Assembly (NCBI GenBank): GCA_934644775.1
Contig: CAKUDB010000001.1
Coordinates: 36,441 to 100,440, forward strand
Direction: 5' to 3'
DNA: 64,000 nt
DNA from: an uncultured bacterium
GTDB lineage: Bacteria; Vulcanimicrobiota; Xenobia; Xenobiales; Xenobiaceae
Of this stretch, positions 4,548-26,497 are shown piece by piece. Each line of letters starts with the position of its first letter. The stretch's first letter is position 1. The position numbers were made by a program, and so were the translations under genes. The notes below the pieces were generated by a model. The model saw only the letters and a program-made list of their open reading frames with translations, searched no databases and was not told the DNA's origin.

Positions 4548-4670
4548 GCCAAAATATTTTTTGAAGGCGTATCCTAAAAAAACAGAAAGAAAAGGCGCTT
4601 CTGCCTGCAATAGAGAACTTTCATTTTACAAAATATAATAACTTTATAGGGCCGAGGAAGGGGAAAGAAC

Positions 4671-10629: not shown

Positions 10630-11382
10630 TTACTTAACTACGTAAGCTTTTTTAATCATAGTTGGCTGCTGGTTGGCCGGTAAGCTCTTTAAATAAGCTT
10701 CGCCATTATACCAAAGCATACCCTGATCGAGTCCCATGTCGGGGCTACCTACAGACTTAAACTGATCGGCCACTTCCATTCCTTTGACAACTTTACCAAA
10801 AGTGGTGAAATTCTGGGACTGGAGGAAGTCGTTATTGCCATAGTTGATAAACACTTGAGTGGAGTTGGTGTTGGGGCCGGCTTTAGCAAAAGCTAAAGTG
10901 CCACGCTCTAAGTGGAAGAGGCTGGGATCGTCGTTAAAGTTCTTTTCTTTCCAGTCGCTCATGCCTTTGCGCCAGTTGATACCGAATTGAGCTACGAAAG
11001 GCTGAGGATTCTTGACGACGCGGAAGATGGGAGTGTTGTTGTAATAGCCCATCTCTACCAATTCTACGAAGCGTTTGGCAGCATTGGGAGCAGCCTGGGG
11101 ATAAATTTCCATATCTACATCGCCGTCGCTAGTTTCGAAGCGAACTAAAGTATATTCGGTAATGGCTGGAGCATTGGAACCGAAGGGAGTGAGGGAACGA
11201 TACTGAGCTGACATGGGGCTCTCCTTTTCTTGGGGTTGGGACGGCTCTGAGGATAGGGCCGACTCACTCTGAGTTTGAGTAGTGGCTGGTTTTTCTGCGG
11301 CGGTTTCTTGCTTAGTGCAACCAAATTGCACACCGGCTAGCAATATAACGGCAACTAGTCCAGATACAACATATTTGTTCAT
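10630..11382 (-). CDS. Cyclophilin-type peptidyl-prolyl cis-trans isomerase, secreted/lipoprotein (divergent)
   Basis: Signal peptide MNKYVVSGLVAVILLAGVQFGC. The cyclophilin core motifs are present: FRVV (matches FHRV) and GTLAFAKAGPNTNSTQVFIN (matches GTLSMANAGPNTNGSQFFIT). Confidence 0.75.
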   Translation of the reverse strand: MNKYVVSGLVAVILLAGVQFGCTKQETAAEKPATTQTQSESALSSEPSQPQEKESPMSAQYRSLTPFGSNAPAITEYTLVRFETSDGDVDMEIYPQAAPNAAKRFVELVEMGYYNNTPIFRVVKNPQPFVAQFGINWRKGMSDWKEKNFNDDPSLFHLERGTLAFAKAGPNTNSTQVFINYGNNDFLQSQNFTTFGKVVKGMEVADQFKSVGSPDMGLDQGMLWYNGEAYLKSLPANQQPTMIKKAYVVK

Positions 11383-11437: not shown

Positions 11438-12208
11438 TTAATCTTGGATAATTTCAGCTTTAATAATCATAGTGGGCTGCTGATTAGCTGGAAGTTGCTT
11501 TAAATAGGCGTCTCCGTTAGTCGAAAGCATTTTCTGACTTAAGCCCATACTGGGATCGCCCACTTGCTTAAAATTATGGGCAATTTCTAAACCTTTGGTG
11601 ATAATACCGAAAGTAGAAAAAGTTTGCTCGCGCAAGAAATCGTTATTGCCATAATTGATAAACACTTGAGTAGAGTTGGTATTGGGGCCCGCTTTAGCAA
11701 AAGCCAAAGTGCCGTCTTCTAAGTGGAAGAGGCTGGGATCGTCGTTGAATTTCTTTTCGTTCCATTGGCGCTGGCCGTCTCTCCAGTTGATACCAAACTG
11801 AGCTACAAAAGGACGAGGAGTATTAACTACGCGGAAGATAGGCGTATTGTCGTAGTAGCCAGCTTTCACTAATTCGATAAAGCGCCCAGCGGCGTTAGGG
11901 GCAGCCTGAGGATAAATTTCCATCTCGATATTGCCCGCGCTAGTGGTAAAGCGTACTTTTACTACTTCGGTAAGGGCTGGAGCGTTGTCATAAAAGGGCT
12001 TAAGATGCCTATATTTGGAAACTACTTCCGGTTTCTTGGAGCTCTCTTTTACTTGGTCGCTCTTACTTTTAACGGCCACAATCTTTTGTTGGGCAATTGT
12101 TGCCCTGCTTGTGGAGGGGCTCTCTTGGGCCCAAGCCGAAGCTTGGCCAAAAGCTCCGCCAATTAAAGCTAACGAAACGATAAGGCTTTTTCTAAAGAAT
12201 TTGTTCAT
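11438..12208 (-). CDS. Cyclophilin-type peptidyl-prolyl cis-trans isomerase, secreted (paralog of upstream gene)
   Basis: The same GTLAFAKAGPNTNSTQVFINYGNNDFL core is present. I trimmed the start to the internal ATG at 12208, which gives a signal peptide MNKFFRKSLIVSLALIGGAFGQASA. The ORF-track start at 12292 would add 28 non-signal residues. Confidence 0.75.
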   Translation of the reverse strand: MNKFFRKSLIVSLALIGGAFGQASAWAQESPSTSRATIAQQKIVAVKSKSDQVKESSKKPEVVSKYRHLKPFYDNAPALTEVVKVRFTTSAGNIEMEIYPQAAPNAAGRFIELVKAGYYDNTPIFRVVNTPRPFVAQFGINWRDGQRQWNEKKFNDDPSLFHLEDGTLAFAKAGPNTNSTQVFINYGNNDFLREQTFSTFGIITKGLEIAHNFKQVGDPSMGLSQKMLSTNGDAYLKQLPANQQPTMIIKAEIIQD

Positions 12209-12245
12209 CTTATTTTGGTAGGCCGTTCCTTTCTTAGGTAGGTTG

Positions 12246-12905
12246 TTAGGGAGAACCGGGTACGTTTTGGGCTGGAGGCAAAGCCCAAGCATCTTTTATA
12301 TGGGACATATCATTGAAGGAAAGCAAAGTTGGAAAATCGTCGTGGTAACGCAAGCGAACTACTCCAGTATTGCCCAATTCCATAGACCATTGGTAGCGCC
12401 CTTGAGGTGGGCCGACAATCTCCCAAAGTATAGTTCGGATAATTCCACCGTGGCTAAAAGCTATCACACGCCCTTCTTGTGGTAAATCGCGTCTCCAAGC
12501 TTCGGCTCGGTTGGCCACATCTTGCAAAGACTCCTCGGATCCAGGGAAGCGAGTATTATAAGGATCTTTCCACCAAGTAGTGACTTGGTTTTGCTCGTCC
12601 AGGCTAAGTTCATCCCAGGTTCGTCCTTCTACAATGCCCATAGGTATCTCTCGCAAACGCTTATCTAAACGGATCTTTTGTGGATCCCAATGGGGAAGGG
12701 CTAAGCGAGCCGTCTCGATACAGCGGTGTAAATCCGAACTCCAAACCTGAGTGAAGGGGACGTCTTTTAAATTGTCGGCCAAAGCTCTGGCCTGACTCTT
12801 CCCTAATTCGTTGAGAGGAACGTCGCTATTACCTTGCCAGCGTTTTACCTTATTCCAATCGGTATTGCCGTGGCGAACTAGCCAAATTTCTAACATGGCC
12901 GCCAT
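12246..12905 (-). CDS. Histidine phosphatase superfamily protein (phosphoglycerate mutase-like, branch 1)
   Basis: N-terminal RHGNTDWN catalytic motif (RHG) is present. Later His in ...SHGGIIR. Confidence 0.75.
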   Translation of the reverse strand: MAAMLEIWLVRHGNTDWNKVKRWQGNSDVPLNELGKSQARALADNLKDVPFTQVWSSDLHRCIETARLALPHWDPQKIRLDKRLREIPMGIVEGRTWDELSLDEQNQVTTWWKDPYNTRFPGSEESLQDVANRAEAWRRDLPQEGRVIAFSHGGIIRTILWEIVGPPQGRYQWSMELGNTGVVRLRYHDDFPTLLSFNDMSHIKDAWALPPAQNVPGSP

Positions 12906-12946
12906 TTTTGCTCCTTGGCTAAGTCAATCCTGCCTTCTTAGCTTTT

Positions 12947-13459
12947 TTGCTATTTTTAGTCTTTGTTTATCTTTTTATCATCTTTTACTTATTTATTTTC
13001 TCTATAAATTTGGAACAAGCTCAGGCTAAAGCTGAAACTGCTGCGGCCGAAATTAACGCTATTACCAAAGATTGCAACCAGAGCTGGGCTTTAGATTGTC
13101 AATCTCAACCTTGGTGCGCCGCTTTTGCTACTGGCATCTTGGCTAAAAATGGCGTTATGGACTTTAGCAATTGCTCTAATGTAAACTATACTCCCACTTT
13201 GGTTGAGTGGTCTAAGAGCGAAGGTACTTGGAGCCAAGCTGGAGGCGATTATGAACCTCAATCTGGCGATATGATTATGTTCGACTGGGACAACACTCGC
13301 TCTGGTGCCGATCATGTAGGTATTGTAGTTAGCTACGATAATTCTACTGGAGTTGTCACTACTGTTGAAGGTAACAGCGGCTCTCCTGGAGCTGTCAGAG
13401 TAAAAACTTATGATCGTAACCAAGCTTGCGTAATGGGGTATATATCTCCCAACAAATAA
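12947..13459 (+). pseudogene. Orphan CHAP-domain gene fragment (C-terminal 135 aa homologous to the CHAP domains of the three downstream paralogs, closest to paralog 3); N-terminal 20 codons derive from a poly-T tract and are probably not coding
   Basis: Homology begins at AAAEINAITKDCNQSWALDCQSQPWCAAF. It runs through GDMIMFDWDNTRSGADHVGIV...TVEGNS...GYISPNK. There is no upstream GH73 or coiled-coil sequence and no RBS. A possible in-frame TTG lies at about 13010. Confidence 0.45.
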
Positions 13460-13692: not shown

Positions 13693-16600
13693 ATGTCATT
13701 AGATAAGATTTCCAGCTTTTTAGGTATATCGGGTATTTCTGCTACCACCTCCAGCGCTGCTGCGCCTAGCAATAGTAGTTTAGGTTTTGCTACTAACGAT
13801 TCTATTTCTTTATCTGGCTCTGAAGCTATCAACGCTTTCGGATCGCTTAGTGTTGCTTCCTTAGACGATGAAGCTGCCGCTACTCAAAGTGTCGAAGGTG
13901 CCGAAGCGGCTGCTGCTCGAGCTACCCAAGCTGGTGTTAAAGCTGAAGAAGCTGCCGACAAAACTGTCAAGGCCAATGCCGACGATGAAAAGGCTCAGGC
14001 TAAAGCTAATTTAACTGGCGAAGAAGCCCGAGCCCAGGAGGCTGCCCAAGCTGAAAAGGCAGCCACTCAAGTTAAAACCCAAACTGAAGCTGCCGAGCAA
14101 GCCAAAACGGCTGCTGCTGCCAACGCCAATGTCGATGAGGCCAACACCGATTTAGAAAAAGCCCAGGCTGAGTTAGAAAAAGTTATCAACGAAGGCGACC
14201 AAGAGGGCAAAGAGGCCAACACGGCTGAAACTTTGGGCACTTTAGAGGCCGAAATGGAGCAGCTTAAAAAAGAGCAAGAGAAGAAGGCCCAAGAGCGCGA
14301 AGCCTTAGAGCAAAAACAAGCCCAATTAGTGGAAGATTTAGCCGAAGCCCAAGCCGACGGCGATCAAGAAAAAGTTAAACAACTTAGCCAAGAGCTGGAT
14401 CAAGTTAATCAGCAACTGAGCGCTTCTCAAGACGATCTTAGTTCTTTGCAAAATCGCATTTCCAATTTAGGTGATACTATCGACTCTACTCGCAACCAAC
14501 TCGATCAAGAAAATGCTGCCAAAGCCCAGAATCAGCAAGACAAAGTAAATAGCGCCCAGAGCGCTCAGCAAAACGCCGCTTCTAATGTCGAGCAAGCCCA
14601 AGCCCAGGCTACTTCGGCCAACGAGCAATCCCAAGCTGTTCAGCAAGCGGCTAGCCAGGCTGGCCAGGCTGCTACCGAGGCTAATGCGGCTGCCCAAGCT
14701 TCCCAGAGCGACGCTGCCAAAGCTGCTTCCGAAGCTCAAGACTCTAAGTCTAAGGCCGAGCAAGCTAAAGCCGACATGGAACAGCTTAAGTCTCAAGCTA
14801 CCCAAGCTCGCCAAGAAGCTACCACTAAAGCTGCCGAAGCTAATAAGGCCGATTCTGAAGTATCTCAGGCCCGGTCGGCTTTAGAAGCGGCCAAGGCAGC
14901 TAAAAAAATTATCGAAGATAAAGATGGCAATACCCAGCAAGTGCCAGACGAAGAAGCTATCGCTTCGGCCCAGTCGGCCTTAGACTCTGCCCAAGCTAAA
15001 GCCGAGGCCGCCCACAGCGCCGCCGATCAAGCTGAAAATAAAGCTGCTCAGTTAGAGAACCAGCTCGAGGCCGCCGAAGGTAAGTCGGAGCAAGCCCAAA
15101 ACCAAGCCACTCAGGCTAGCCAAGCTTCCGATCAGGCTGAAACTAAAGCTACCGACGAAGCTAGTAAAGCCGATCAAGCCCAAACTGAGGCTACCGAAGC
15201 TGATAACCAAGCCCAAGATGCGGCTGGCCAGGTTAATAGCGCCGATCAGAAAGCGGCTAAAGCTGGAGACACTGCCAACCAAATTGACGATAAGGCCCAA
15301 AAGGCTAAAGACGGCGTAGAGGCTGTGGAAGCGGCCAACGCTGCCGACCAAGCCGCCGCCGACAGTGCCCAAGATACGGCTGATCAGGCTAAAGACGACG
15401 CCGAGCAAACTAAAGACGGTCAAGCTGCCGCTACCGACGGAGTTAAAGACGCCTCTAAAGATGGTGCTAAAGACGGTGCCAAGATCGATCCCGAGAAGTT
15501 GCCCGACGGTGTCAAGATCGACAAGAATGGTAAGATGGTCGACTCTCAAGGCCATCAAGTTAATGCCGAAGGTAAGCGCGTCGACGAAAATGGCAAGGTC
15601 ATGAGCGAAGAAGAGATCGCGGCTGCCGATAAAGCTAAGGCCGAAGAAGCCAAATCTAAAGAAAGCTCTGGTGAAGCTGCCGACAATAAGAGCGACTTCG
15701 AAAAAGCTACCGGCACTAGCAACGAAGATTTGCAAAAGCTGATCAACCAACTCGGCCAGCAAATCGCCAACCAAGGGGCGGCTCAACAGGCTGCGGGTAA
15801 TAACGGCGGCTCCGGTGGTGGCGGCAACTATGGCGGCGGTAATTCTGGCGGCGGCAACTATGGTGGCGGTGGTACCGGCAGCGTAGGTGGCAGCGGCGGC
15901 AGCGGCTCAGTCGCTTCGGCTGGCCAGGCTGGCTCGGTTGGCAAAGTAGCCCTTAGCGATCAAAACGAGCAAGCTATGGCTAAAGCTATCGACAGCTTTT
16001 TGGCTGAGCAAGGCTCGGATGCTCCCGAAGGTACTGGCGCTCTCTTTGTCAAGGCTGGTAAAGAAAATGATGTCGATCCTCTCATTTTGGTCTCTATTGC
16101 CGGCCAAGAAACCCAGTGGGGCAAGACGGGTATCGGCATCAACGGTTGGATGGGCGTAGGCGCTTACGACTCCGATCCTAACAATGCCACCCGCAACTCT
16201 AAGTTCTCCGGCGTAGAGAATCAAATCAATGTCGGTGCCCGAACCTTCCACAACTTGCGTGAAAAGGGCGGAGCCTCTTCAGCCGATTCTATCGCTGCCC
16301 AGACTTCGGCAGTTAATAAAGCCGGCTGGGCTACCGACCAAAATTGGCATAACGGCGTCACCAGCATCTACCAAAATAAGGTAGCTCCTTATGTGCAAGC
16401 CAAGATGGAAGAAATAAAGGCTTCTTCTCCTAGTGGTGGCCCAGGTATCGATGCTGCTATAAATGAGGCTCTCTCTATGGAAGGTATGACTGAAGGTGGC
16501 AACGCTGCTCAGATCAATGCCATTACCAAAGATTGCAATAAGAGCTGGGCTCTCGATTGTCAGCAATATCCTTGGTGCGCTGCTTTTGCTACCGGTATTT

Positions 16601-16914
16601 TGGCTAAGAATGGCGTAGAAGACTTCTCCGGTTGCGACAACGTCAACTATACTCCCACTTTGGTCAATTGGTCGCAAGGCAAAGGCACTTGGAACCACGC
16701 CAGTGGCGATTATTCACCTAAGAAGGGCGATATGATCTTCTTCGATTGGGACGGATCCCGTACCAGCCCCGATCACGTAGGCTTAGTAGTTAATTACGAT
16801 TCCAACAGCGGCACCATTACTACCGTTGAAGGTAATAGTAGCAACTCTGTAAGAGTTAAAACTTACAACCGCAACGACTCTTGCGTATTAGGCTATACGT
16901 CTATTGGCGACTAG
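13693..16914 (+). CDS. Coiled-coil / Gly-rich linker / GH73 N-acetylglucosaminidase / CHAP amidase-peptidase multidomain peptidoglycan hydrolase, paralog 1 (1073 aa)
   Basis: RBS aggagaag sits upstream. Residues 60-640 are A/Q/E/K-rich heptad coiled coil. A GGSGGGGNYGGG linker follows. The GH73 motifs are AGQETQWGKTG (matches ESGWG) and WATDQNW (matches YATDxxY). The CHAP motifs are YPWCAAFATGIL (Cys), GDMIFFDWDGSRTSPDHVGLVV (His) and TVEGNS. No N-terminal signal peptide. Confidence 0.85.
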   Translation: MSLDKISSFLGISGISATTSSAAAPSNSSLGFATNDSISLSGSEAINAFGSLSVASLDDEAAATQSVEGAEAAAARATQAGVKAEEAADKTVKANADDEKAQAKANLTGEEARAQEAAQAEKAATQVKTQTEAAEQAKTAAAANANVDEANTDLEKAQAELEKVINEGDQEGKEANTAETLGTLEAEMEQLKKEQEKKAQEREALEQKQAQLVEDLAEAQADGDQEKVKQLSQELDQVNQQLSASQDDLSSLQNRISNLGDTIDSTRNQLDQENAAKAQNQQDKVNSAQSAQQNAASNVEQAQAQATSANEQSQAVQQAASQAGQAATEANAAAQASQSDAAKAASEAQDSKSKAEQAKADMEQLKSQATQARQEATTKAAEANKADSEVSQARSALEAAKAAKKIIEDKDGNTQQVPDEEAIASAQSALDSAQAKAEAAHSAADQAENKAAQLENQLEAAEGKSEQAQNQATQASQASDQAETKATDEASKADQAQTEATEADNQAQDAAGQVNSADQKAAKAGDTANQIDDKAQKAKDGVEAVEAANAADQAAADSAQDTADQAKDDAEQTKDGQAAATDGVKDASKDGAKDGAKIDPEKLPDGVKIDKNGKMVDSQGHQVNAEGKRVDENGKVMSEEEIAAADKAKAEEAKSKESSGEAADNKSDFEKATGTSNEDLQKLINQLGQQIANQGAAQQAAGNNGGSGGGGNYGGGNSGGGNYGGGGTGSVGGSGGSGSVASAGQAGSVGKVALSDQNEQAMAKAIDSFLAEQGSDAPEGTGALFVKAGKENDVDPLILVSIAGQETQWGKTGIGINGWMGVGAYDSDPNNATRNSKFSGVENQINVGARTFHNLREKGGASSADSIAAQTSAVNKAGWATDQNWHNGVTSIYQNKVAPYVQAKMEEIKASSPSGGPGIDAAINEALSMEGMTEGGNAAQINAITKDCNKSWALDCQQYPWCAAFATGILAKNGVEDFSGCDNVNYTPTLVNWSQGKGTWNHASGDYSPKKGDMIFFDWDGSRTSPDHVGLVVNYDSNSGTITTVEGNSSNSVRVKTYNRNDSCVLGYTSIGD

Positions 16915-16946
16915 TAAAATAGAGGCTTAATATAAGTCCTCCTAAA

Positions 16947-17000
16947 AGCTCTCCTTAACGGTCAAATTAAACGACTTGGCCGGGCGGGGGAGCTTTTTTT
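16947..17000 (+). terminator. Terminator-like hairpin plus T7 downstream of paralog 1
   Basis: agctctcc-N30-gggggagc-ttttttt lies inside the 131-bp 3' flank. That flank is identical after paralogs 1 and 2. Confidence 0.45.
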
Positions 17001-17036
17001 GTCCAGTTAGTTAAAGATTAGTTAAATAAGTTTAGT

Positions 17037-17096
17037 GTAAAATAAATGTTAAAACCATTTTTTAATTCTAGATAAAGATGGGAACATAATTGATAA
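17037..17096 (+). promoter_or_regulatory. Conserved promoter-like module copy 2: GTAAAATAAATGTTAA-N16-TAGATA ... ATTGATAA
   Basis: Same spacing as copy 1. It lies 98 nt upstream of the paralog 2 ATG. Confidence 0.45.
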
Positions 17097-17172
17097 TGGG
17101 AGTAATACGAGTAGGAAGGGTGCCGCTAGGTGCCGCCTTTTTTCGTTTACAGAAAGTTAGGAGAGTTACTGA

Positions 17173-20100
17173 ATGTCATTAGATAAGATCTCTAGCTTCT
17201 TAGGTATATCGGGTATTTCTGCTACCACCTCCAGCGCTGCTGCGCCTAGCAATAGTAGTTTAGGTTTTGCTACTAACGATTCTATTTCTTTATCTGGCTC
17301 TGAAGCTATCAACGCTTTCGGATCGCTTAGTGTTGCTTCCTTAGACGATGAAGCTGCCGCTACTCAAAGTGTCGAAGGTGCCGAAGCGGCTGCTGCTCGA
17401 GCTACCCAAGCTGGTGTTAAAGCTGAAGAAGCTGCCGACAAAACTGTCAAGGCCAATGCCGACGATGAAAAGGCTCAGGCTAAAGCTAATTTAACTGGCG
17501 AAGAAGCCCGAGCCCAGGAGGCTGCCCAAGCTGAAAAGGCAGCCACTCAAGTTAAAACCCAAACTGAAGCTGCCGAGCAAGCCAAAACGGCTGCTGCTGC
17601 CAACGCCAATGTCGATGAGGCCAACACCGATTTAGAAAAAGCCCAGGCTGAGTTAGAAAAAGTTATCAACGAAGGCGACCAAGAGGGCAAAGAGGCCAAC
17701 ACGGCTGAAACTTTGGGCACTTTAGAGGCCGAAATGGAGCAGCTTAAAAAAGAGCAAGAGAAGAAGGCCCAAGAGCGCGAAGCCTTAGAGCAAAAACAAG
17801 CCCAATTAGTGGAAGATTTAGCCGAAGCCCAAGCCGACGGCGATCAAGAAAAAGTTAAACAACTTAGCCAAGAGCTGGATCAAGTTAATCAGCAACTGAG
17901 CGCTTCTCAAGACGATCTTAGTTCTTTGCAAAATCGCATTTCCAATTTAGGTGATACTATCGACTCTACTCGCAACCAACTCGATCAAGAAAATGCTGCC
18001 AAAGCCCAGAATCAGCAAGACAAAGTAAATAGCGCCCAGAGCGCTCAGCAAAACGCCGCTTCTAATGTCGAGCAAGCCCAAGCCCAGGCTACTTCGGCCA
18101 ACGAGCAATCCCAAGCTGTTCAGCAAGCGGCTAGCCAGGCTGGCCAGGCTGCTACCGAGGCTAATGCGGCTGCCCAAGCTTCCCAGAGCGACGCTGCCAA
18201 AGCTGCTTCCGAAGCTCAAGACTCTAAGTCTAAGGCCGAGCAAGCTAAAGCCGACATGGAACAGCTTAAGTCTCAAGCTACCCAAGCTCGCCAAGAAGCT
18301 ACCACTAAAGCTGCCGAAGCTAATAAGGCCGATTCTGAAGTATCTCAGGCCCGGTCGGCTTTAGAAGCGGCCAAGGCAGCTAAAAAAATTATCGAAGATA
18401 AAGATGGCAATACCCAGCAAGTGCCAGACGAAGAAGCTATCGCTTCGGCCCAGTCGGCCTTAGACTCTGCCCAAGCTAAAGCCGAGGCCGCCCACAGCGC
18501 CGCCGATCAAGCTGAAAATAAAGCTGCTCAGTTAGAGAACCAGCTCGAGGCCGCCGAAGGTAAGTCGGAGCAAGCCCAAAACCAAGCCACTCAGGCTAGC
18601 CAAGCTTCCGATCAGGCTGAAACTAAAGCTACCGACGAAGCTAGTAAAGCCGATCAAGCCCAAACTGAGGCTACCGAAGCTGATAACCAAGCCCAAGATG
18701 CGGCTGGCCAGGTTAATAGCGCCGATCAGAAAGCGGCTAAAGCTGGAGACACTGCCAACCAAATTGACGATAAGGCCCAAAAGGCTAAAGACGGCGTAGA
18801 GGCTGTGGAAGCGGCCAACGCTGCCGACCAAGCCGCCGCCGACAGTGCCCAAGATACGGCTGATCAGGCTAAAGACGACGCCGAGCAAACTAAAGACGGT
18901 CAAGCTGCCGCTACCGACGGAGTTAAAGACGCCTCTAAAGATGGTGCTAAAGACGGTGCCAAGATCGATCCCGAGAAGTTGCCCGACGGCGTCTTTGTGG
19001 ATAAGAACGGTACCCTTTACAGTGAAGATGGTAAGAAGCTTCCCGAGGGCAGCACCCTCAACGAAGATGGCAAGTTAGTTAATGGCGAGGGTAAGCTCAT
19101 CGACAATAAGGGTAACCTGATCAACGAAGATGGGCAGCGCATTGGGGCCGACGGCAAGGTCATGAGTGAAGAAGAAATTGCTGCTGCCGACAAAGCCAAG
19201 GCCGACGAAGCTCAAGCTAGTGAAGCTAAAGCCAACGAGAGTGGTGCCAAGGCTGCCGACAATAAGAGCGACTTCGAAAAAGCTACCGGCATTAGCAACG
19301 AAGATTTGCAAAAGCAGATCGACCAACTCGGCCAGCAAATCGCTGCTCAACAGGCTGCAGCTGAAAATGGCGGCGGTGGCGGCGGCAACTATGGCAGCGG
19401 AGGCGGCGGCGTAGGTGGCGTCGGTGGTTCCGGTGGCGCTGGCCAAGTCGCTTCCGGAGCTTCAGTTAAGAGGAGTAGCGCCGCTGGCGATCTCGATCTT
19501 TCTAAGTGCTCCGACGAAGATATTGCTAAAGCTATAGATGGCTTCTTAGTCGAAAAAGGCTCGCCAGCTCCTGCCGGTACTGGGGATCTCTTCGTTGAAG
19601 CGGGTAAGAAATACGACGTCGATCCTTTGGTCTTACTCTCTATTGCTGGTCAGGAGACTCGCTGGGGTACCGCCGCAGGAAGCGTAGGTATCAACGGCTG
19701 GATGGGCGTAGGGGCCTACGACTCCGATCCTAATAACTCTACTCGCAATCCCATATTCAGAGGTGTAGAGAAGCAAATCTTTATGGGTGGCAAAACCTTT
19801 GCCAAATTGCGCGGGACGGGTGGATCTTCCTCTGATGCCTCTATTGCCGATCAGGCTGCAGCTGTCAATAAAGCCGGCTGGGCTACCGATCAGAATTGGC
19901 ACGATGGCGTAACTAAGATCTACCATGATCAAGTTGTTCCTTACATGTTGGAAAACTTGCCCGGTGCCGAGCTTAAGGGCAACAAGGGCATTGAAGGGGC
20001 CCTCGACGAGGCCCTCTCTATGGAAGGTATGACTGAAGGTGGCAACGCTGCTCAGATCAATGCCATTACCAAAGATTACAATAAGAGCTGGGCTCTCGAT

Positions 20101-20457
20101 TGTCAGCAATATCCTTGGTGCGCTGCTTTTGCTACCGGTATTTTGGCTAAGCATGGTGTAGAAGACTTCTCCGGTTGCTCCAATGTCAACTCTACCAACT
20201 ACTTGGTCAGTTGGTCGCAAGGCGAAGGCACTTGGAACCACGCCAGTGGCGATTATTCACCTAAGAGGGGCGATATGATCTTCTTCGATTGGGACGGATC
20301 CCGTACCAGCCCCGATCACGTAGGCTTGGTAGTTAATTACGATTCCAACAGCGGCACCATTACTACCGTTGAAGGTAATAGTAGCAACTCTGTAAGAGTT
20401 AAAACTTACAACCGCAACGACTCTTGCGTATTAGGCTATACGTCTATTGGCGACTAG
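17173..20457 (+). CDS. Coiled-coil / GH73 / CHAP multidomain peptidoglycan hydrolase, paralog 2 (1094 aa)
   Basis: The first ~1.8 kb is nucleotide-identical to paralog 1 apart from a few synonymous changes in codons 6-9. The central ~1 kb is divergent, with a different DGK-repeat number and a roughly 70%-identical GH73 domain. The 3' 440 nt plus 131-nt flank are again near-identical. Confidence 0.85.
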   Translation: MSLDKISSFLGISGISATTSSAAAPSNSSLGFATNDSISLSGSEAINAFGSLSVASLDDEAAATQSVEGAEAAAARATQAGVKAEEAADKTVKANADDEKAQAKANLTGEEARAQEAAQAEKAATQVKTQTEAAEQAKTAAAANANVDEANTDLEKAQAELEKVINEGDQEGKEANTAETLGTLEAEMEQLKKEQEKKAQEREALEQKQAQLVEDLAEAQADGDQEKVKQLSQELDQVNQQLSASQDDLSSLQNRISNLGDTIDSTRNQLDQENAAKAQNQQDKVNSAQSAQQNAASNVEQAQAQATSANEQSQAVQQAASQAGQAATEANAAAQASQSDAAKAASEAQDSKSKAEQAKADMEQLKSQATQARQEATTKAAEANKADSEVSQARSALEAAKAAKKIIEDKDGNTQQVPDEEAIASAQSALDSAQAKAEAAHSAADQAENKAAQLENQLEAAEGKSEQAQNQATQASQASDQAETKATDEASKADQAQTEATEADNQAQDAAGQVNSADQKAAKAGDTANQIDDKAQKAKDGVEAVEAANAADQAAADSAQDTADQAKDDAEQTKDGQAAATDGVKDASKDGAKDGAKIDPEKLPDGVFVDKNGTLYSEDGKKLPEGSTLNEDGKLVNGEGKLIDNKGNLINEDGQRIGADGKVMSEEEIAAADKAKADEAQASEAKANESGAKAADNKSDFEKATGISNEDLQKQIDQLGQQIAAQQAAAENGGGGGGNYGSGGGGVGGVGGSGGAGQVASGASVKRSSAAGDLDLSKCSDEDIAKAIDGFLVEKGSPAPAGTGDLFVEAGKKYDVDPLVLLSIAGQETRWGTAAGSVGINGWMGVGAYDSDPNNSTRNPIFRGVEKQIFMGGKTFAKLRGTGGSSSDASIADQAAAVNKAGWATDQNWHDGVTKIYHDQVVPYMLENLPGAELKGNKGIEGALDEALSMEGMTEGGNAAQINAITKDYNKSWALDCQQYPWCAAFATGILAKHGVEDFSGCSNVNSTNYLVSWSQGEGTWNHASGDYSPKRGDMIFFDWDGSRTSPDHVGLVVNYDSNSGTITTVEGNSSNSVRVKTYNRNDSCVLGYTSIGD

Positions 20458-20489
20458 TAAAATAGAGGCTTAATATAAGTCCTCCTAAA

Positions 20490-20543
20490 AGCTCTCCTTA
20501 ACGGTCAAATTAAACGACTTGGCCGGGCGGGGGAGCTTTTTTT
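20490..20543 (+). terminator. Terminator-like hairpin plus T7 downstream of paralog 2 (identical copy of 16947-17000)
   Basis: Identical sequence to the post-paralog-1 element. Confidence 0.45.
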
Positions 20544-20658
20544 GTCCAGTTAGTTAAAGATTAGTTAAATAAGTTTAGTGTAAAATGTTAGTCCTTTAAT
20601 TAACATATTCCCCGTGGCTCAAAGCAGAGGCTTTACGCCACCCTTAGTAAAAATTAAA

Positions 20659-20718
20659 AGTTAAATAAATGTTAAATCAGTAGATAAATTCTAGATAAAA
20701 TAAAGAAGTGCTTGATAA
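20659..20718 (+). promoter_or_regulatory. Conserved promoter-like module copy 3: TTAAATAAATGTTAA-N16-TAGATA ... CTTGATAA
   Basis: Same architecture as copies 1 and 2. It lies 90 nt upstream of the paralog 3 ATG at 20787. Relative to the paralog 2 upstream region, this one carries an about 75-bp insertion (20580-20655) containing inverted repeat atgtta-N10-taacat. Confidence 0.45.
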
Positions 20719-20786
20719 TATAGACAACGATACCTGTACATAGGTTGGATAGGCCTTGTGCTCGTAAAGGTAGGAGGGATTTTACT

Positions 20787-23234
20787 ATGACTATCAATAG
20801 CAACTACGACAATTCTGCTGCCATTAGACAGCAAGAAGAGGCTCGTCGTCAGGAGGAAGCCCGTCGTCGAGAAGAGGCTCGTCGCCAGGAAGAAGCTCGC
20901 AAAGCTGAAGAAGCTCGCAAGGCTCAAGAAGCTCAGCAAGCTAAAGAAGCCGAAGAGGCTCGCAAAGCTCAAGAAGCCCAAAGGGTCAGAGAAGAAGACA
21001 AAGTGGCCGTTACCAACAGCGAAGCAGCCGAATCTGGCAAAAGGGTAAAAGTTGCTTCTTTAGACGATGAAGGTGGCAGCTTCTCTGCCAGAGGAGAAGA
21101 GTTTAGCGGCACTAGCAGCAACTACGGCGCTAGAAAGTCCGAATATTCCACCCATGTTGCTTCCAGCGGTAGAACGCACGGCGGTGGTGGCGGCACTTTC
21201 AGCAGCAAGACCGAAGACAAGAGTTTTCTTGGAAAAGTCAAGGATGTTCTTGGCGGTGCTAAAGATAAAATTGTCGATCATATAAAAGACAAAGTCGCCG
21301 ACGGTTTAGATGGCGCTTCCGATTTAGCCGATAAGATCGGCATGGATGGCCTTTCTGACGATCTCGAAGAGATGGCTGACAAAGTTAGAGGTGAAGACGG
21401 CGAAGAAGTTTCCGACGCCGACAAAGCTAAGGCTAAAGACGGCGTAGAAAAAACTAAAGAAGAGATTAAAGAGAAGATTAAGGAAAAGAAACTCGAGAAG
21501 CTCAACCAAGAGAAAGAAGTCCAGACTAAGAAGCAAGAAGAGCTGGAGAAAAAGCGCGACGAGACTATCGAAGAGTTGGAAAAAGCCCAAGCTGCTGGCG
21601 ATCAGGCCAAAGTTAAAGAGCTTACCAACAAGCTCGACGGTATCAACGACGAACTTTCTGAAGTAAACGATAAGCTCGACAAGATCAATAAAAAGATCGA
21701 CGAGCTGGAGCCCAAGCCCGAAGAGGAAATGGAGAAGCTCCAGAAAGACATGGACGAGCTTAATAAGCAAGAAGAGGCTAAGCTCAAAGAAAAAGAAGAG
21801 CTGGAGAAGAAGCAAGAAGAGCTCGTTGAAGAGTTGGCTGCTGCCAAAGCGGCTGGCGACCAGGAGAAGATTGCCGAAATTACCAGCAAGTTGCAAGGCG
21901 TCAACGAAGACTTAGAAAAAGTCAACGGCGAGCTGGAAGATATTCAGTCACAAAAGCAGAACCTCCAGAAAGATATTGACAAGGTTCAGGGCGAGATCGA
22001 CGCCAAGAATCCTCCTGCTGAAGAGGCCGCTCCGGCTCAGGGTGCCGAAGGTAAGCAAGCTGCTTCTAACGAGGCCTCTGGGGCTCAGGGTGCCGCTAAT
22101 GGCAATAATGGTGCCAATGGCACTAATGGTGGCGGTGGCAACAATGGTGGCGGCGGTACCGGAGGTGTCAACGGTGGCGGTGGTGGCCGTGGCACTGGTG
22201 GTGTAGGTGGTACTGGCGCTGCTCAGGGTGCTGGCAATACTGGAGCTGCTGCTCGCACTACTGCGGCTGGCGACATCGATATTTCCAAGTGCTCCGACGC
22301 CGATGTGGCCAAGGCTATCGATGGCTTCTTGGCTTCTAAGGGCTCTTCGGCTCCCGAAGGTACCGGCGCTATGTTCGTTAAGGCCGGTAAAGAGAATAAT
22401 GTCGATCCCTTAGTATTGCTCTCTATTGCTGGTCAGGAGACCCAGTGGGGCAAGACGGGTATCGGTATCAACGGTTGGATGGGCGTAGGTGCCTACGACT
22501 CCGATCCTAACAACGCTACTCGCAATTCCAAGTTCTCTGGCGTAGAGAATCAGATCAATGTCGGAGCCCGAACTTTCGCCAACTTGCGCGCTAAGGGCGG
22601 ATCTTCTGCCGACGCCTCTATCGCCGAGCAGACTTCCGCTGTAAATAAAGCCGGTTGGGCTACCGACCAGAATTGGCATAAGGGCGTCACCAGCATCTAC
22701 CATGATCAGGTAGGCGCTTACATGCTCGAGCACCTCAAAGGTGCCGAAACTAAAGGCGGCAAAGGCGTGTCCGGTGCTCTCACCGAAGCTGGCTCTATGG
22801 TAGGCATGACCGAAAGTGGCAACGCTGCCCAGATCAATGCCATTACCAAAGACTGGAACCAGAGCTGGGCTCTCGATTGTCAGCAGCAGCCTTGGTGCGC
22901 CGCTTTCGCTACTGGTATTTTGGCTAAGCATGGTGTCATGGACTTTAGCAAGTGCTCCAATGTCAACTATACTCCCACTTTGGTAGAGTGGTCTAAGAGC
23001 CAGAAAACTTGGCAGCAGGGTGGCAACGGCTATGCTCCTAAGGCTGGCGATATGATTATGTTCGACTGGGACAACACCCGCAGCGGTGCCGACCACGTGG
23101 GTATCGTAGAAAGTTACGACGCAGCCAGCGGTACCGTTACTACTATTGAAGGCAATAGCAGCAACTCCGTACGTCGCAAGACTTATAATGTCAACGCCGC
23201 TTGTATTATGGGCTTCATTATGCCTAATAAATAA
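20787..23234 (+). CDS. Coiled-coil / GH73 / CHAP multidomain peptidoglycan hydrolase, paralog 3 (815 aa from ATG 20787)
   Basis: Start trimmed to the ATG with RBS taggaggg 8 nt upstream. The ORF-track TTG at 20745 is unlikely. The N-terminus has (EEARRQ)n hexapeptide repeats. E/K-rich coiled coil carries repeated AAGDQ(A/E)K(V/I)KEL...L.GVN.(E/D)L motifs. A GGGGNNGGGGTGG linker follows. The GH73 domain has AGQETQWGKTG and WATDQNW. The CHAP domain has QPWCAAFATGIL and DHVGIVESYD. Confidence 0.85.
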   Translation: MTINSNYDNSAAIRQQEEARRQEEARRREEARRQEEARKAEEARKAQEAQQAKEAEEARKAQEAQRVREEDKVAVTNSEAAESGKRVKVASLDDEGGSFSARGEEFSGTSSNYGARKSEYSTHVASSGRTHGGGGGTFSSKTEDKSFLGKVKDVLGGAKDKIVDHIKDKVADGLDGASDLADKIGMDGLSDDLEEMADKVRGEDGEEVSDADKAKAKDGVEKTKEEIKEKIKEKKLEKLNQEKEVQTKKQEELEKKRDETIEELEKAQAAGDQAKVKELTNKLDGINDELSEVNDKLDKINKKIDELEPKPEEEMEKLQKDMDELNKQEEAKLKEKEELEKKQEELVEELAAAKAAGDQEKIAEITSKLQGVNEDLEKVNGELEDIQSQKQNLQKDIDKVQGEIDAKNPPAEEAAPAQGAEGKQAASNEASGAQGAANGNNGANGTNGGGGNNGGGGTGGVNGGGGGRGTGGVGGTGAAQGAGNTGAAARTTAAGDIDISKCSDADVAKAIDGFLASKGSSAPEGTGAMFVKAGKENNVDPLVLLSIAGQETQWGKTGIGINGWMGVGAYDSDPNNATRNSKFSGVENQINVGARTFANLRAKGGSSADASIAEQTSAVNKAGWATDQNWHKGVTSIYHDQVGAYMLEHLKGAETKGGKGVSGALTEAGSMVGMTESGNAAQINAITKDWNQSWALDCQQQPWCAAFATGILAKHGVMDFSKCSNVNYTPTLVEWSKSQKTWQQGGNGYAPKAGDMIMFDWDNTRSGADHVGIVESYDAASGTVTTIEGNSSNSVRRKTYNVNAACIMGFIMPNK

Positions 23235-23473: not shown

Positions 23474-26400
23474 ATGCAAAATCTTCTGGCCCGCACCAAA
23501 GGGAGCTCGCGTTGGCTGGGCTTGTGCCTTTTCGCTATAGCCTTCCTGTGTGCTGCTCTCATTTCCGGTTGCGGCAGTTCCGGTAGCTCCGGCGGCGGTG
23601 GCACTTCTGATTCTGCTTCCTCAAAAGGAACTACCGATGTTATTTTCCATTTTAATGAATCAAGTTCAGCTAAAATATTAGCTCGGGCTATCCCCCAGGG
23701 TACTACCCATATCCGTTTTACTGGCAACGATAATAACCGTGAGAAGCGCTATGGCCCTACTGAAAAAGCCTACGCTTCTACTATCACTTTAAATAATGTT
23801 CCGGTTAGTGTTACCGGTTTTGTTCTTGAGTGCATCAAAAAAGATGGCAAAAACGTCGAACTTACCGCTATTGTTCCTGTTGATAAGGTATCATTAACTG
23901 AAGACAAGGAAAACCTTGTTATAATTAGCGATTCCTACGTTAAACCGCTTAGCGAAGTTGTTAAAAGTGTAACTAATACTCCTAGTGAGTTTAATCCCTT
24001 TGCCATTGGCATGAGTGAAAGTTTTACAGTTATTGCTACTTTAGAAGGTGGTCAGACTGTAGCTCTTACTCCTTACTTAACATTTACCAGCAGCGATCCC
24101 AAGGTAGCTACTGTCGAGCAGAATGGTTTTGACGGTGCTAAAGTTGTTGCCCAAGGCGGCGGCACAGCCACTATTTCTGGTGAAGTGTTAGGCGTAAAAA
24201 CTAATATTACGGTGACAGTCGATCCTGGTAAACGCGAGACAGGTGTTAAGTTCGTCCCTAGTACAACAAAAGTGACCCAGGGACTGTCCGTACCTCTTGA
24301 AGCCAAAATGGTTTGGAATGATGGGACAACAACAGAAATTGATAAAGATCGTGTAACATCATACACTGCCGATCCTAAAGATGCAGTTACTATTGAGAAA
24401 ACTGACAAGGGTTGCAAAGTCACCGCTGATAAAGGCGCTAAAGAAGGAACTAAAGTAACTATCACTATGACAGTTACAAATGAAGGTGGAGATCCTTTCA
24501 CCGGTAAAGCTACTGTTGAAATTACCAATAAAACGGTTGTGTCTATTGCTATCTCTAATGATACTACTGGCGATATGCTCAATAAGCTTTATCCTACCGG
24601 CAAAAATAACAACAGCTGTCAGTTTACCGCTACGGTTACTTGGAGCGATGGCGCAAAAACTGATGAAACTAATACAGTTACTTGGACGAGTTCTACCCCT
24701 ACTGTCGCTGCTTTCGATGAAACTACTAAAGGCAAGTTGAATGCTGTTGCTGTCGGTGAAACTACTGTATTTGCTGAACGTGATGGAATAAAATCTGAAA
24801 ACTCTACCATTACTGTAAAAGAACCTGGTGTTACTGAGCTTAAGACTGATGTTTATAATCCTGAAGAAGGTTTCGTAGCTTACATTAAGGATGGCGTTGG
24901 TCGGCCTTACCCTATCACTGTGACTGCCGTCTATGCTAATGGTGAAGAAAAAACTGTTGCTTTAAGTGACCTTACCTCTGAATTCTTTAGAACTGAAGGT
25001 GCAACCAGCTCAGAATATGTCGAGTTCCAAGAGGGTGAAAAGGGTGCAATTAACATTGTTCCTAAGAGCGTTACTGACGAGTCGGATAGTTTCATCAGAT
25101 TCACTTACGAAGGAAAATCTAAAGATGTAAAAATTGCCATTAAAGATGTACTTCCTGAGAAGATAGCTATAAACTTAGTAGATACAACTACTGACAAGAC
25201 TTATAACATCAACCCCACCGACGGCACTTATGAGATTGGTATACCTTATGGCCGCTCTTACAAAATTGTTGTACGTGCCCAAGCTAATAACGGTGAGGAC
25301 TTAGGTGACATCTCTGGTAACTATGAGTTTAAAGATAGCTTAGTTAGAGATGAAAAATTTGAGCATGGCTTAGCCTATCCGATCGTCGTTGATGGTATGT
25401 CTAAAGATAAGGAATGGTCTTCCAGTGCCAAAATCATTAGCTATGCCCAAGATTACAATAGAGCTATATTCTCTGGTGACGATAGTACGCCGCTTGGCGA
25501 TCGTGTCTATACGCAATACAAGACTATTGAGGAAAAGGATGGGGTAAAGAGCGTTGTAATTAAAAACGTAAGCGAGGACGCTCGAACAATAACTGTTACC
25601 GGACAGAGTAAAGCTGACCAGATAGAAGCTTTCCAGGTAAAAGTTACTTTGAAGATGCCTGCTGTTGACAAGTATATAGCCGTTTATAACGACAAGGATA
25701 ACGGGACTACTTTTGACATTCCTCGTGGCGTTGACTTTGACATAACCAATTCTGGCCAACATAAAGTTAAGGCTCAGATGTCTTACGCAAAATGTGAAGC
25801 CTCAGCAGAGTTCCCAGAAGAGGACAATTTGAAAGATGTCACTGAGAATATGACTATAGATGAAGAATCTATTACTCCTCTCTTAAACACTTTCTTGGTT
25901 GAAAAGAAGGCTGAGGGTAGCTACTCCAGCGTAACTGATGAAGATGCGTATAGTAGCCGTAATAAGATCGGCCAGACCGGCAATATTACCATGAAGAATA
26001 AGTGGGATGACAAGTCTGAAAACTTCGGTTGTGAAGCTGCTTCGGGTAAGCCTTTCCAGAGCTTTAATGTTGAACCGGCTGAGTTCACTTTGAAACTTGA
26101 GAGGCCTACTATCGTTAGCTGTAAGCCTGTAGTCTTAGGTGAAGATGGTAACCAAGTTACAGCTGAAACTGACGGTAAATATCATTTCAAAGCTAATACA
26201 AAGTTCCAATTCTTGTTGAAAGATGTAGAACTTAGTGATAAAGGTAAACTTGATCACTTAGAAGGTAATAGTACTATTAGCAGTATCTACTATGAGGGAA
26301 GGTATATCGATATAGTTAAGCTCTTGGATCCTAAGAAAATAGACAGCTTGTATCAAGTTCAAGATAGTGAAGAGCTTAGCGCTGGTGCCGCTAGCGATAT

Positions 26401-26497
26401 TAAGATTACTCCTGACCCTCACCAGTACTACAATGTTTCTGATTATGTTGATAAACATAAAGATGACGTAACCATAACTGTTGTTTTGGACAAGTAA
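23474..26497 (+). CDS. Surface lipoprotein with multiple bacterial Ig-like (Big_2) domains, 1007 aa
   Basis: Signal peptide plus lipobox ...CAALISGCGSSGSSGGGG. Repeated Big_2-like segments are present, for example ATVEQNGFDGAKVVAQGGGTATISGEVLG...TVTVDP. RBS ggaggaa sits upstream. Confidence 0.7.
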   Translation: MQNLLARTKGSSRWLGLCLFAIAFLCAALISGCGSSGSSGGGGTSDSASSKGTTDVIFHFNESSSAKILARAIPQGTTHIRFTGNDNNREKRYGPTEKAYASTITLNNVPVSVTGFVLECIKKDGKNVELTAIVPVDKVSLTEDKENLVIISDSYVKPLSEVVKSVTNTPSEFNPFAIGMSESFTVIATLEGGQTVALTPYLTFTSSDPKVATVEQNGFDGAKVVAQGGGTATISGEVLGVKTNITVTVDPGKRETGVKFVPSTTKVTQGLSVPLEAKMVWNDGTTTEIDKDRVTSYTADPKDAVTIEKTDKGCKVTADKGAKEGTKVTITMTVTNEGGDPFTGKATVEITNKTVVSIAISNDTTGDMLNKLYPTGKNNNSCQFTATVTWSDGAKTDETNTVTWTSSTPTVAAFDETTKGKLNAVAVGETTVFAERDGIKSENSTITVKEPGVTELKTDVYNPEEGFVAYIKDGVGRPYPITVTAVYANGEEKTVALSDLTSEFFRTEGATSSEYVEFQEGEKGAINIVPKSVTDESDSFIRFTYEGKSKDVKIAIKDVLPEKIAINLVDTTTDKTYNINPTDGTYEIGIPYGRSYKIVVRAQANNGEDLGDISGNYEFKDSLVRDEKFEHGLAYPIVVDGMSKDKEWSSSAKIISYAQDYNRAIFSGDDSTPLGDRVYTQYKTIEEKDGVKSVVIKNVSEDARTITVTGQSKADQIEAFQVKVTLKMPAVDKYIAVYNDKDNGTTFDIPRGVDFDITNSGQHKVKAQMSYAKCEASAEFPEEDNLKDVTENMTIDEESITPLLNTFLVEKKAEGSYSSVTDEDAYSSRNKIGQTGNITMKNKWDDKSENFGCEAASGKPFQSFNVEPAEFTLKLERPTIVSCKPVVLGEDGNQVTAETDGKYHFKANTKFQFLLKDVELSDKGKLDHLEGNSTISSIYYEGRYIDIVKLLDPKKIDSLYQVQDSEELSAGAASDIKITPDPHQYYNVSDYVDKHKDDVTITVVLDK

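Follow-up and report, generated by a model that had tools for sequence, protein, structure and literature searches.

Mosaic identity among tandem GH73-CHAP hydrolase genes of an uncultured Xenobia bacterium points to recurrent interlocus gene conversion

Intragenomic gene conversion among babA, babB and babC of Helicobacter pylori produces chimeric genes (PMC4552749, PMC3444412), and concerted evolution of bacterial duplicates has been described for rRNA operons (PMC8022953) and for tuf-type and other prokaryotic genes, with the criterion that the within-genome similarity of paralogs exceeds the between-genome similarity of orthologs (PMC6053082). Here we describe a tandem array of four co-oriented open reading frames (ORFs), P4, P1, P2 and P3, which have related C-termini and encode predicted cell-wall hydrolases. 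The array lies in a stretch of 64,000 nucleotides (nt) of contig CAKUDB010000001.1 from an uncultured gut bacterium of the Xenobiaceae; this whole stretch is referred to as the window. Like the bab genes, P1 and P2 are nearly identical at their 5' and 3' ends and divergent in the middle, and in both systems non-reciprocal inter-locus recombination would give chimeric genes and strain differences in the cassette present at each locus. In contrast to the bab genes, which are dispersed adhesin genes involved in antigenic and adhesion variation, the array consists of adjacent hydrolase genes in direct repeat whose catalytic region is kept distinct, and neither phase-variation repeats nor a role in host interaction is evident at the array. 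With rRNA operons and tuf-type duplicates the array shares a within-genome likeness that recurs in several lineages. However, whole and highly conserved genes are homogenised in those systems, whereas here homogenisation is partial, affects the fastest-evolving module (the stalk, with a nonsynonymous divergence, dN, of 0.13 between species vs. 0.01–0.02 for the D catalytic domains), stops at an indel and leaves the enzymatic modules distinct. Concerted evolution is a known mechanism; this case of it, the protein family and a homogenisation that is partial and confined to the stalk are new.

The paralogs are labelled A, B, C and D in array order, P4 being a remnant of A, P1 being B, P2 being C and P3 being D. 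Relatives were found by a scan using one genome per species. Those with the same locus are uncultured gut and rumen metagenome-assembled genomes (MAGs) labelled UBP9, Candidatus Bruticola and Xenobia, together with one labelled Candidatus Riflebacteria; UBP9 and Xenobia correspond to Eremiobacterota/Vulcanimicrobiota. Related contigs and MAG loci are numbered L001, L002, L003 and so on, W stands for the window, and genes are named accordingly, L1_B being the B gene of L001 and W_B being P1. The arrays of L001 and L002 contain four full genes in the order A-B-C-D; in L003/L020, L021, L005 and L006 only A, C and D are present.

When P1 and P2 were compared without gaps, at an offset of 3480 for the 5' block and 3543 for the 3' block, positions 13693–15509 and 17173–18989 (1,817 nt) differed at three sites, all synonymous, namely 13710, 13713 and 13719, which are the third positions of codons 6, 7 and 9. 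The remainder of this block constitutes the repeat R1, and upstream of the ATG similarity is gone within ~14 nt. Divergence begins at an indel of 27 amino acids (aa) in a DxxG-rich segment that follows a DGAK repeat. The central cassettes share 69% nt identity over aligned columns, with 141 gap columns, and their GH73 domains share 69% aa identity. Similarity resumes in a second repeat, R2 (573 nt), the copies of which are 97% identical; of the 17 mismatches 11 fall in a 32-nt patch (16636–16667), and the exact part is confined to 258 nt (16786–17043), 129 nt of which lie beyond the stop codon. An earlier note on this DNA had reported 1.8 kb of 5' identity broken by a few synonymous changes in codons 6–9, and this description holds. 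Its divergent centre held for the linker and the GH73 domain, but the DGAK repeat lies inside the identical block and not in the centre, where the note had put a DGK-repeat segment. The renewed 3' similarity that it had described is present, starting at 16471/20014 and not at 16467/20011, although the block as a whole is not identical, and the shared 3' flank, given as 131 bp (16915–17045), measures 129 nt and ends at 17043/20586.

Pairwise comparison of the locus with itself, one of the checks that the note had proposed, showed that divergence is not uniform along it. When the differences were permuted 10,000 times, no identical run exceeded 122 nt, compared with 1,790 nt observed (p ≤ 1e-4), and the 258-nt run of the 3' part alone likewise gave p ≤ 1e-4. 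Synonymous divergence (dS) between P1 and P2 rose from 0.008 in the N-terminal part to 0.84 in the mid segment and ~1.9 in GH73, and fell to 0.067 in CHAP. The DGAK repeat itself is a 12-nt tandem repeat (GACGGTGCTAAA, 3.7 units; 15436–15479 and 18916–18959), of which L019 has one extra unit, a slippage polymorphism in the homogenised block.

The same arrangement recurs in two other species with different tract end-points. In L001 the 100% identity of B and C begins 4 nt ahead of the ATG and reaches +2,092, in L002 they are identical from −17 to +1,304 and then roughly 94% identical over ~430 nt, and the tract of the window ends at +1,817. Between the three genomes the 5' region of B and C is 76–83% identical at the nt level. 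Over the N-terminal 420 aa, B and C share 100% identity within each of W, L001 and L002, compared with 79–87% between these genomes, and N-terminal dS is 0.008 within the window vs. 0.9–1.2 between species; orthologs differ between species by a dS of 0.8–1.5 in every segment. For the affected segment, paralogs within a genome are closer than orthologs between genomes, in agreement with the concerted evolution of the flanks that the note had proposed. Purifying selection alone was rejected as the cause of the N-terminal identity, as this identity extends to synonymous sites.

Adjacent segments of the same genes give incongruent groupings. In protein identity matrices the N-terminal sequences group by genome, and the CHAP and GH73 domains group by paralog type. 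CHAP identity within a type across genomes is 99% for A, 97–99% for D, 95–99% for C and 87–96% for B, the sole exception being C of the window, which is 92% identical to L1_B and 68% to L1_C. The central and C-terminal cassettes of B and C are distinct and orthologous in L001 and L002: the B-type diagnostic residues of P1 are common to L1_B and L2_B, the short B-type mid segment is common to W_B and L2_B (in L001, B has been overwritten by the C type), and P2 shares the C-type mid segment, linker and 5' end of GH73 with L1_C, L2_C, L3_X and L4_X. The central cassette, which the note had regarded as a variable one, retained or replaced, is partly retained orthologous sequence and not purely variable. 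Because these cassettes are orthologous and the B–C intergenic region is conserved, the B/C duplication is old. In addition, the homology of the B–C spacer in W, L001 and L002, together with upstream regions of P1 and P2 that are unrelated apart from shared motifs, indicates a genuine tandem arrangement as opposed to a strain bubble. A neighbour-joining tree of three flanking proteins (no support values) placed the window basal to L001 and L002, and B is therefore probably ancestral and was lost elsewhere.

The 5' boundary of R1 lies at the ribosome binding site (RBS)/start codon in all three genomes, where the homology of the differing upstream spacers stops, and its 3' boundary in the window (15509) coincides with the 27-aa indel that separates the short B-type from the long C-type mid segment. 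Replacement of C's native CHAP by that of B is specific to the species of the window. The terminator hairpin of B, kept in the B–C spacers of L001 and L002, recurs as an identical copy after P2. The C–D spacer measures 287 nt in the window compared with 168–179 nt in relatives and consists of the 129-nt B flank followed by sequence that aligns to C's native post-stop region, the 3' end of the copied flank being at a non-homologous position ahead of C's native downstream remains.

The shared flank ends inside a 13-nt motif, AAATAAATGTTAA, which has three matches in the 64 kb (0.2 expected by chance), located 112–130 nt upstream of the starts of P1, P2 and P3, and which is conserved in intergenic regions of L001–L003. 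Since each of its only three occurrences precedes a paralog start, the motif is likely to be a shared regulatory site, suggesting common regulation of P1–P3. It is followed by the conserved boxes TAGATAAA and TTGATAA. A microhomology junction at the 3' end of R2 is plausible, because AAATAAATGTTAA, where the junction falls, resembles the ...AAT AAA TAG end of C-type genes.

Finer mosaicism in the centre and in CHAP emerged from nt windows and from a map of paralog-diagnostic residues. The GH73 domain of P1 is B-type at both ends, and its core is A/D-type (class 3 of the map, standing for A and D), with 115 of 126 positions matching P3 vs. 91 of 126 matching P2; it lacks a 2-aa insertion that L1_B and L2_B have in their B/C-type core. 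Although its run-length test is borderline (p = 0.04), this tract is probably an older conversion from D (or A). C's CHAP turned B-type while B's stayed B-type, yet the 32-nt patch, assigned to the C type in P1 by comparison with the B and C types of L001 and L002, has the appearance of a reciprocal exchange and is in the opposite phase in L018 and L019. The GH73 domain of P2 (19470–19900) is C-type and has many substitutions unique to the species at columns that do not vary in any other paralog or genome. Its dN of 0.10 vs. L1_C compares with 0.036 between L1_C and L2_C and 0.01 among D orthologs (about 3–10x); relaxed constraint, a new specificity or import from a divergent lineage may be responsible.

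Based on these patterns, we consider it very likely that recurrent interlocus gene conversion among the tandem A-B-C-D hydrolase genes explains the mosaic, and the exchange appears to be multi-way among the four members, not just between P1 and P2. The array is a four-gene chromosomal tandem family, each gene with the same upstream motif and its own terminator, in which B and C are old paralogs that arose before at least three species separated. Repeated non-reciprocal homologous recombination between the direct repeats, presumably of the RecA type, would overwrite one 5' half with the other, any direction assigned to R1 being putative. Each tract would start where homology starts, at the RBS/start codon, and the tract of the window would stop at the 27-codon indel. 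A second event, in the species of the window, would have copied B's CHAP, stop codon and terminator over C's native CHAP, ending in the conserved CHAP leader on one side and, on the other, near C's stop codon at a junction that was non-homologous or based on microhomology. Shorter and older tracts may have brought D or A sequence into B's GH73 core and a C-type patch into B's CHAP.

Several points weigh against this account. The reciprocal-looking patch, C-type in P1 and B-type in P2, is unlike simple one-way conversion; the borderline D-to-B tract could equally be C-to-B conversion in the L001/L002 lineages; and no recombination gene or experiment ties the pattern to the mechanism. The other points concern the assembly. 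With two repeats, R1 and R2, short reads do not fix the order of the two central cassettes, and the phase of variants at 16609–16785 is uncertain. If the window is a short-read assembly, bubble popping could have erased sparse differences within R1, so that an identity of ~99–100% is a safer statement than 100%. Finally, the contigs L018 and L019 show the opposite phase and another linkage (A–B spacer, R1, C cassette), and they or the window may hold misjoins.

L018 and L019 are two short metagenome contigs of the same species, 95–99% identical to the window. L018 (1–5288) opens with a gene whose mid segment is B-type and whose tail is A-type and continues through the A–B spacer, R1, the C cassette, CHAP and the B–C spacer to a second R1, and its CHAP has the P1-type patch, i.e., the phase opposite to that of the window. 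In L019 (1–300), the A-upstream spacer and ~30 codons of A are joined out of frame to a D-type GH73 core at the microhomology TCTATTG, which implies a deletion of several kb in that strain; the contig continues with a B-type CHAP, the B–C spacer and the C gene. Its last 40 nt (3379–3418) come from an unrelated HD-domain gene, which makes it chimeric at least at that end. In both contigs the gene after the B–C spacer has a diverged first ~75 nt, placing the start of the tract at ~codon 25 as opposed to codon 9, so that the 5' tract boundary is polymorphic within the species. The linkages of the two contigs may be either real structural variants or wrong repeat-graph paths (misjoins); L018, L019 and the window could not be reconciled as one series of crossovers.

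It is possible, but improbable, that repeat collapse and re-use, strain chimerism or wrong repeat-graph paths during assembly gave rise to the duplication or, failing that, to its perfect identity and exact mosaic phase. Five related contigs (L004, L007, L022, L024 and L025) break off within the N-terminal repeat or at its border, as such an artefact would predict, and the alternative linkage and opposite CHAP-patch phase of L018 and the HD-domain end of L019 point the same way. The R1 copies of L018 and L019 are ~12 single-nucleotide polymorphisms (SNPs) and one 12-nt repeat unit apart, hence R1 copies need not be identical. However, the locus has two distinct 5' junctions, from the A–B spacer and from the B–C spacer into R1 (the latter distinguished by the three SNPs in codons 6–9), and two distinct 3' junctions, from R1 into the B and into the C cassette, which means that two R1 copies exist. 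The four-gene array was also assembled independently in three species, and the succession of B–C spacer, R1 and C cassette seen in the window was recovered independently in L019. The note's warning that the direct repeats make the locus prone to copy-number change and assembly trouble was well founded, given the deletions or alternative linkages within the species and the many related contigs that break in the repeat. The locus appears to be structurally unstable within the species and breaks or confuses short-read assemblies; MAG gene content at this locus should therefore be treated with caution.

A young whole-gene tandem duplication of P1, with the centre of one copy later diverged or replaced and the identical flanks as leftovers, is very improbable. 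The identical blocks do flank the centre and include the 3' flank, as a duplicated unit would, and B is absent from several related genomes that have A, C and D only (L020, L021). Nevertheless, the B and C cassettes and the B–C spacer are orthologous in L001 and L002, at a dS of ~1 from the window, the end-points of R1 differ in three species, P1 and P2 have unrelated upstream regions, and B is ancestral in the flanking-gene tree, for which there is no bootstrap support. The least probable of the explanations is recombination with DNA of other strains or species (allelic replacement after transfer) in place of paralog exchange: strain-level variants of the locus exist and the GH73 domain of P2, 85–86% aa identical to other C-types that are 94–100% identical among themselves, could be imported, but donors for R1, R2 and the D-like tract lie a few kb away in the same genome at 91–100% identity, and import cannot explain the identity of B and C within each of three genomes. 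A shufflon, an invertible cassette or a diversity-generating retroelement was rejected, with only weak 24-nt, 79%-complementary inverted repeats found inside the coding repeat and no recombinase genes; the neighbours of the array encode cyclophilins, a phosphatase and an immunoglobulin (Ig)-like lipoprotein.

With recurrent gene conversion as the explanation, the locus would be a clean comparative case of a protein-coding tandem family that evolves partly in concert, in a phylum of which hardly any members have been cultured. Its tracts are bounded by the start of homology and an indel and recur in three species with differing end-points. Domain trees at this locus mislead on orthology or on a duplication age inferred from whole-gene identity. 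Coordinates of the features are collected in Table 1.

Table 1. Features of the hydrolase array in the window, and the array genes of relatives
Feature	Position	Strand	Size	Description
P4 (A)	12947–13459	+	170 aa	CHAP-only remnant of A; Pfam CHAP E = 9e-11
Upstream motif of P1	13551–13563	+		AAATAAATGTTAA, 130 nt before ATG
P1 (B)	13693–16914	+	1,073 aa	ORF; Pfam CHAP E = 1e-10
R1 copy 1	13720–15509	+	1,790 nt	Putative conversion tract, 100% identical to copy 2
Central cassette of P1	15510–16470	+	961 nt	B-type mid segment, Gly linker, GH73
A/D-like tract in GH73 core of P1	16118–16243	+		QWGKT--GIG...ATRNS; ~91% to P3, 72% to P2
R2 copy 1	16471–17043	+		B-type CHAP, stop codon, 129-nt flank; putative donor type
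C-type mini-patch in CHAP of P1	16636–16667	+		CDNVNYTPTLVNW; P2 keeps B-type NVNSTNYLV
Terminator hairpin of B	16944–17002	+		AAAAGCUCUCC...GGGGGAGCUUUUUUU; fold −33.9 kcal/mol, then U7 tail
Upstream motif of P2	17040–17052	+		Shared 3' flank ends inside it, at 17043
P2 (C by position and central cassette)	17173–20457	+	1,094 aa	ORF; B-type CHAP
R1 copy 2	17200–18989	+		100% identical to copy 1
Central cassette of P2	18990–20013	+	1,024 nt	Long C-type DxxG segment, linker, GH73
R2 copy 2	20014–20586	+		Putative converted tract (B to C), with copy of B's terminator
Terminator copy after P2	20487–20545	+		Identical to terminator of B
Native C–D intergenic remains	20587–20662	+		Downstream of inserted B flank
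Upstream motif of P3	20663–20675	+		
P3 (D), mechanical ORF	20745–23234	+	829 aa	
P3 (D), from likely ATG	20787–23234	+	815 aa	
A, relatives' array			~960 aa	Tail ...ISPNK
B, relatives' array			~1,070–1,111 aa	Tail ...TSIGD
C, relatives' array			~1,100 aa	Tail ...IEPNK
D, relatives' array			~810 aa	Tail ...IMPNK

P1 consists of a lineage-specific N-terminal module, ~550 aa of an Ala/Gln/Glu/Lys-rich helical (presumed coiled-coil) region, a short B-type DxxG segment, a Gly linker, a GH73-like domain and a B-type CHAP domain. P3 has a distinct N-terminus (MTINSNYDNSAA), an EEARR-repeat/coiled-coil region, a Gly linker, GH73 and a D-type CHAP, the last two being 97–99% aa identical to those of D orthologs. 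The mechanical ORF of P3 starts with a TTG at 20745, and the likely true start is the ATG at 20787 (MTINSNYDN); an AGGAGG RBS and this ATG are kept in L001–L003, and the in-frame "codons" upstream of 20787 are conserved as a 5' untranslated region.

The CHAP domain (PF05257) scored 42–44 bits in all four paralogs against a cut-off of 26, and C226, H292, E310 and N312 of alignment A1 are invariant. Glucosaminidase (PF01832) matched P3 with 32.0 bits against a cut-off of 30.2; no Pfam match to it was obtained for P1 and P2 at E ≤ 0.01, both being 69–85% identical to P3 in this domain. The GH73 catalytic glutamate, E70 of the GQET motif, is invariant in 21 sequences. An AlphaFold2 model of the C-terminal 337 aa of P1 (mean per-residue confidence, pLDDT, 83.8) has two domains. 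The top PDB matches of the first are the GH73 enzymes Staphylococcus aureus AtlE, Streptococcus pneumoniae LytB and Sphingomonas FlgJ, and the best matches of the second are the CHAP lysins Ly7917 and phage phi812 hub. These Foldseek matches have a probability of 1.00 (0.99 for 2zyc), but E-values of 0.01–0.25 and identities of 16–19%. We infer that P1–P3 are muralytic enzymes, with a predicted GH73 glucosaminidase and a predicted CHAP peptidase.

The array proteins can be compared with two groups of known enzymes. PcsB combines a coiled coil with CHAP and CwlO and RipC combine a coiled coil with NlpC/P60; together with EnvC they are cell-separation enzymes of 350–500 aa with Sec signal peptides and a partnership with FtsEX. 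The array proteins resemble them in that a long helical stretch at the N-terminus, presumed to be a coiled coil, precedes a C-terminal cysteine peptidase domain of the kind that cleaves peptidoglycan, but they are larger (815–1,094 aa) and have the additional GH73 domain. By eye, their N-terminus (MSLDKISSFLGISGIS...) has no obvious charged n-region or hydrophobic h-region of a Sec signal, and none of the 30 window ORFs scanned showed an FtsE or FtsX domain. With the GH73 and CHAP muralytic enzymes of Firmicutes and phages (AtlE, LytB; Ly7917, phi812 hub) the P1 model shares folds and catalytic residues. In contrast, sequence identity to them is only 16–19% at Foldseek E-values of ~0.01–0.05, no phage or secretion-system context was seen in the 64-kb window and the N-terminal module has matches in this lineage only.

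Conservation of the first ~70 residues (MSLDKISSFLGISGIS...DSISLSGSEAINAFGSLSVASLDDE) across species extends to A, B and C; of this stretch D has only VASLDDE. A HMMER search with the first 100 aa against 1.84 billion representatives returned one true match (a 79-aa fragment) and one spurious match, and no homolog outside the lineage. Looking up the exact sequences of P1 and P2 returned nothing on record, and full-length P2 had no match in a 5.8-billion protein set, low-complexity words filling the candidate list. The C-terminal 329 aa of P2 retrieved only fragments of ≤89% identity and generic Eremiobacterota glucosaminidase proteins. For the C-terminus of P1, phmmer against PDB sequences gave nothing, and a profile search gave weak GH73 matches only, with E above 0.003. 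NCBIfam yielded only a sub-threshold TIGR02594 and SMC/Rad50 coiled-coil noise, and nothing on the hydrolase family was found in literature on Bruticola, Xenobia and UBP9. The hydrolases constitute an undescribed, lineage-restricted family of very large proteins that combine GH73 and CHAP with an N-terminal module found only in the lineage.

A speculative and rather unlikely possibility is that homogenisation of the stalk is selected, with B, C and in some strains A co-assembling via an identical, fast-evolving stalk into a mixed wall-degrading assembly of several enzymes, the array acting as a head-swapping platform, perhaps for antagonism against gut bacteria and with signal-peptide-independent export that recognises the N-terminal 70 residues and VASLDDE. 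In that case conversion would preserve stalk compatibility without merging the enzymatic heads, and the array would yield strain-specific combinations of glycosidase and peptidase heads, as hinted at by the junctions of the window, L018 and L019.

P4 occupies the position at which relatives have a ~960-aa A gene, after the gene of a histidine phosphatase. Its CHAP is 99% aa identical to the A-type CHAP of L001, L002, L003 and L007 and has the A-type tail ...GYISPNK, and positions 12970–13006 of the window match the A-upstream spacer of L019. At 12906–13459 the deletion has left A as a CHAP-only ORF; it took the promoter motif, the N-terminal module, the stalk and GH73, with a loss of ~2.4 kb of 5' coding sequence. 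As its first ~32 residues are junction sequence, P4 is probably a dead remnant of A.

Synteny is kept across independent MAGs, in the order of an ORF, two cyclophilins, the histidine phosphatase, the array and a large Ig-like protein, and the window belongs to the core chromosome, with ribosomal-protein operons at 40.8–62 kb. The cyclophilin-type peptidyl-prolyl isomerases are tandem paralogs on the minus strand (10630–11382 and 11438–12292), lipoprotein-like or secreted, with a 143-nt stretch of 73% nt identity, and both are kept in all related loci. The Ig-like lipoprotein downstream of the array (23474–26497) falls into two classes among relatives, one of ~57% aa identity (L002, L003, L004, L020, L023) and one of ~37% (L001, L005, L006, L021), and these classes disagree with the flanking-gene tree. 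Upstream of the array, a 1,512-aa BspA-type leucine-rich-repeat protein (4671–9209; LRR_5, E = 2.5e-188) adjoins a TamB-like protein (276–4547), both being large surface or envelope proteins. In more distant rumen MAGs, tandem CHAP-only ORFs are 94.5% identical in L010 (52–527 vs. 634–1109) and 90.7% identical in L009 (2396–2903 vs. 4046–4553), which hints that homogenisation of tandem CHAP genes may be common in the group.

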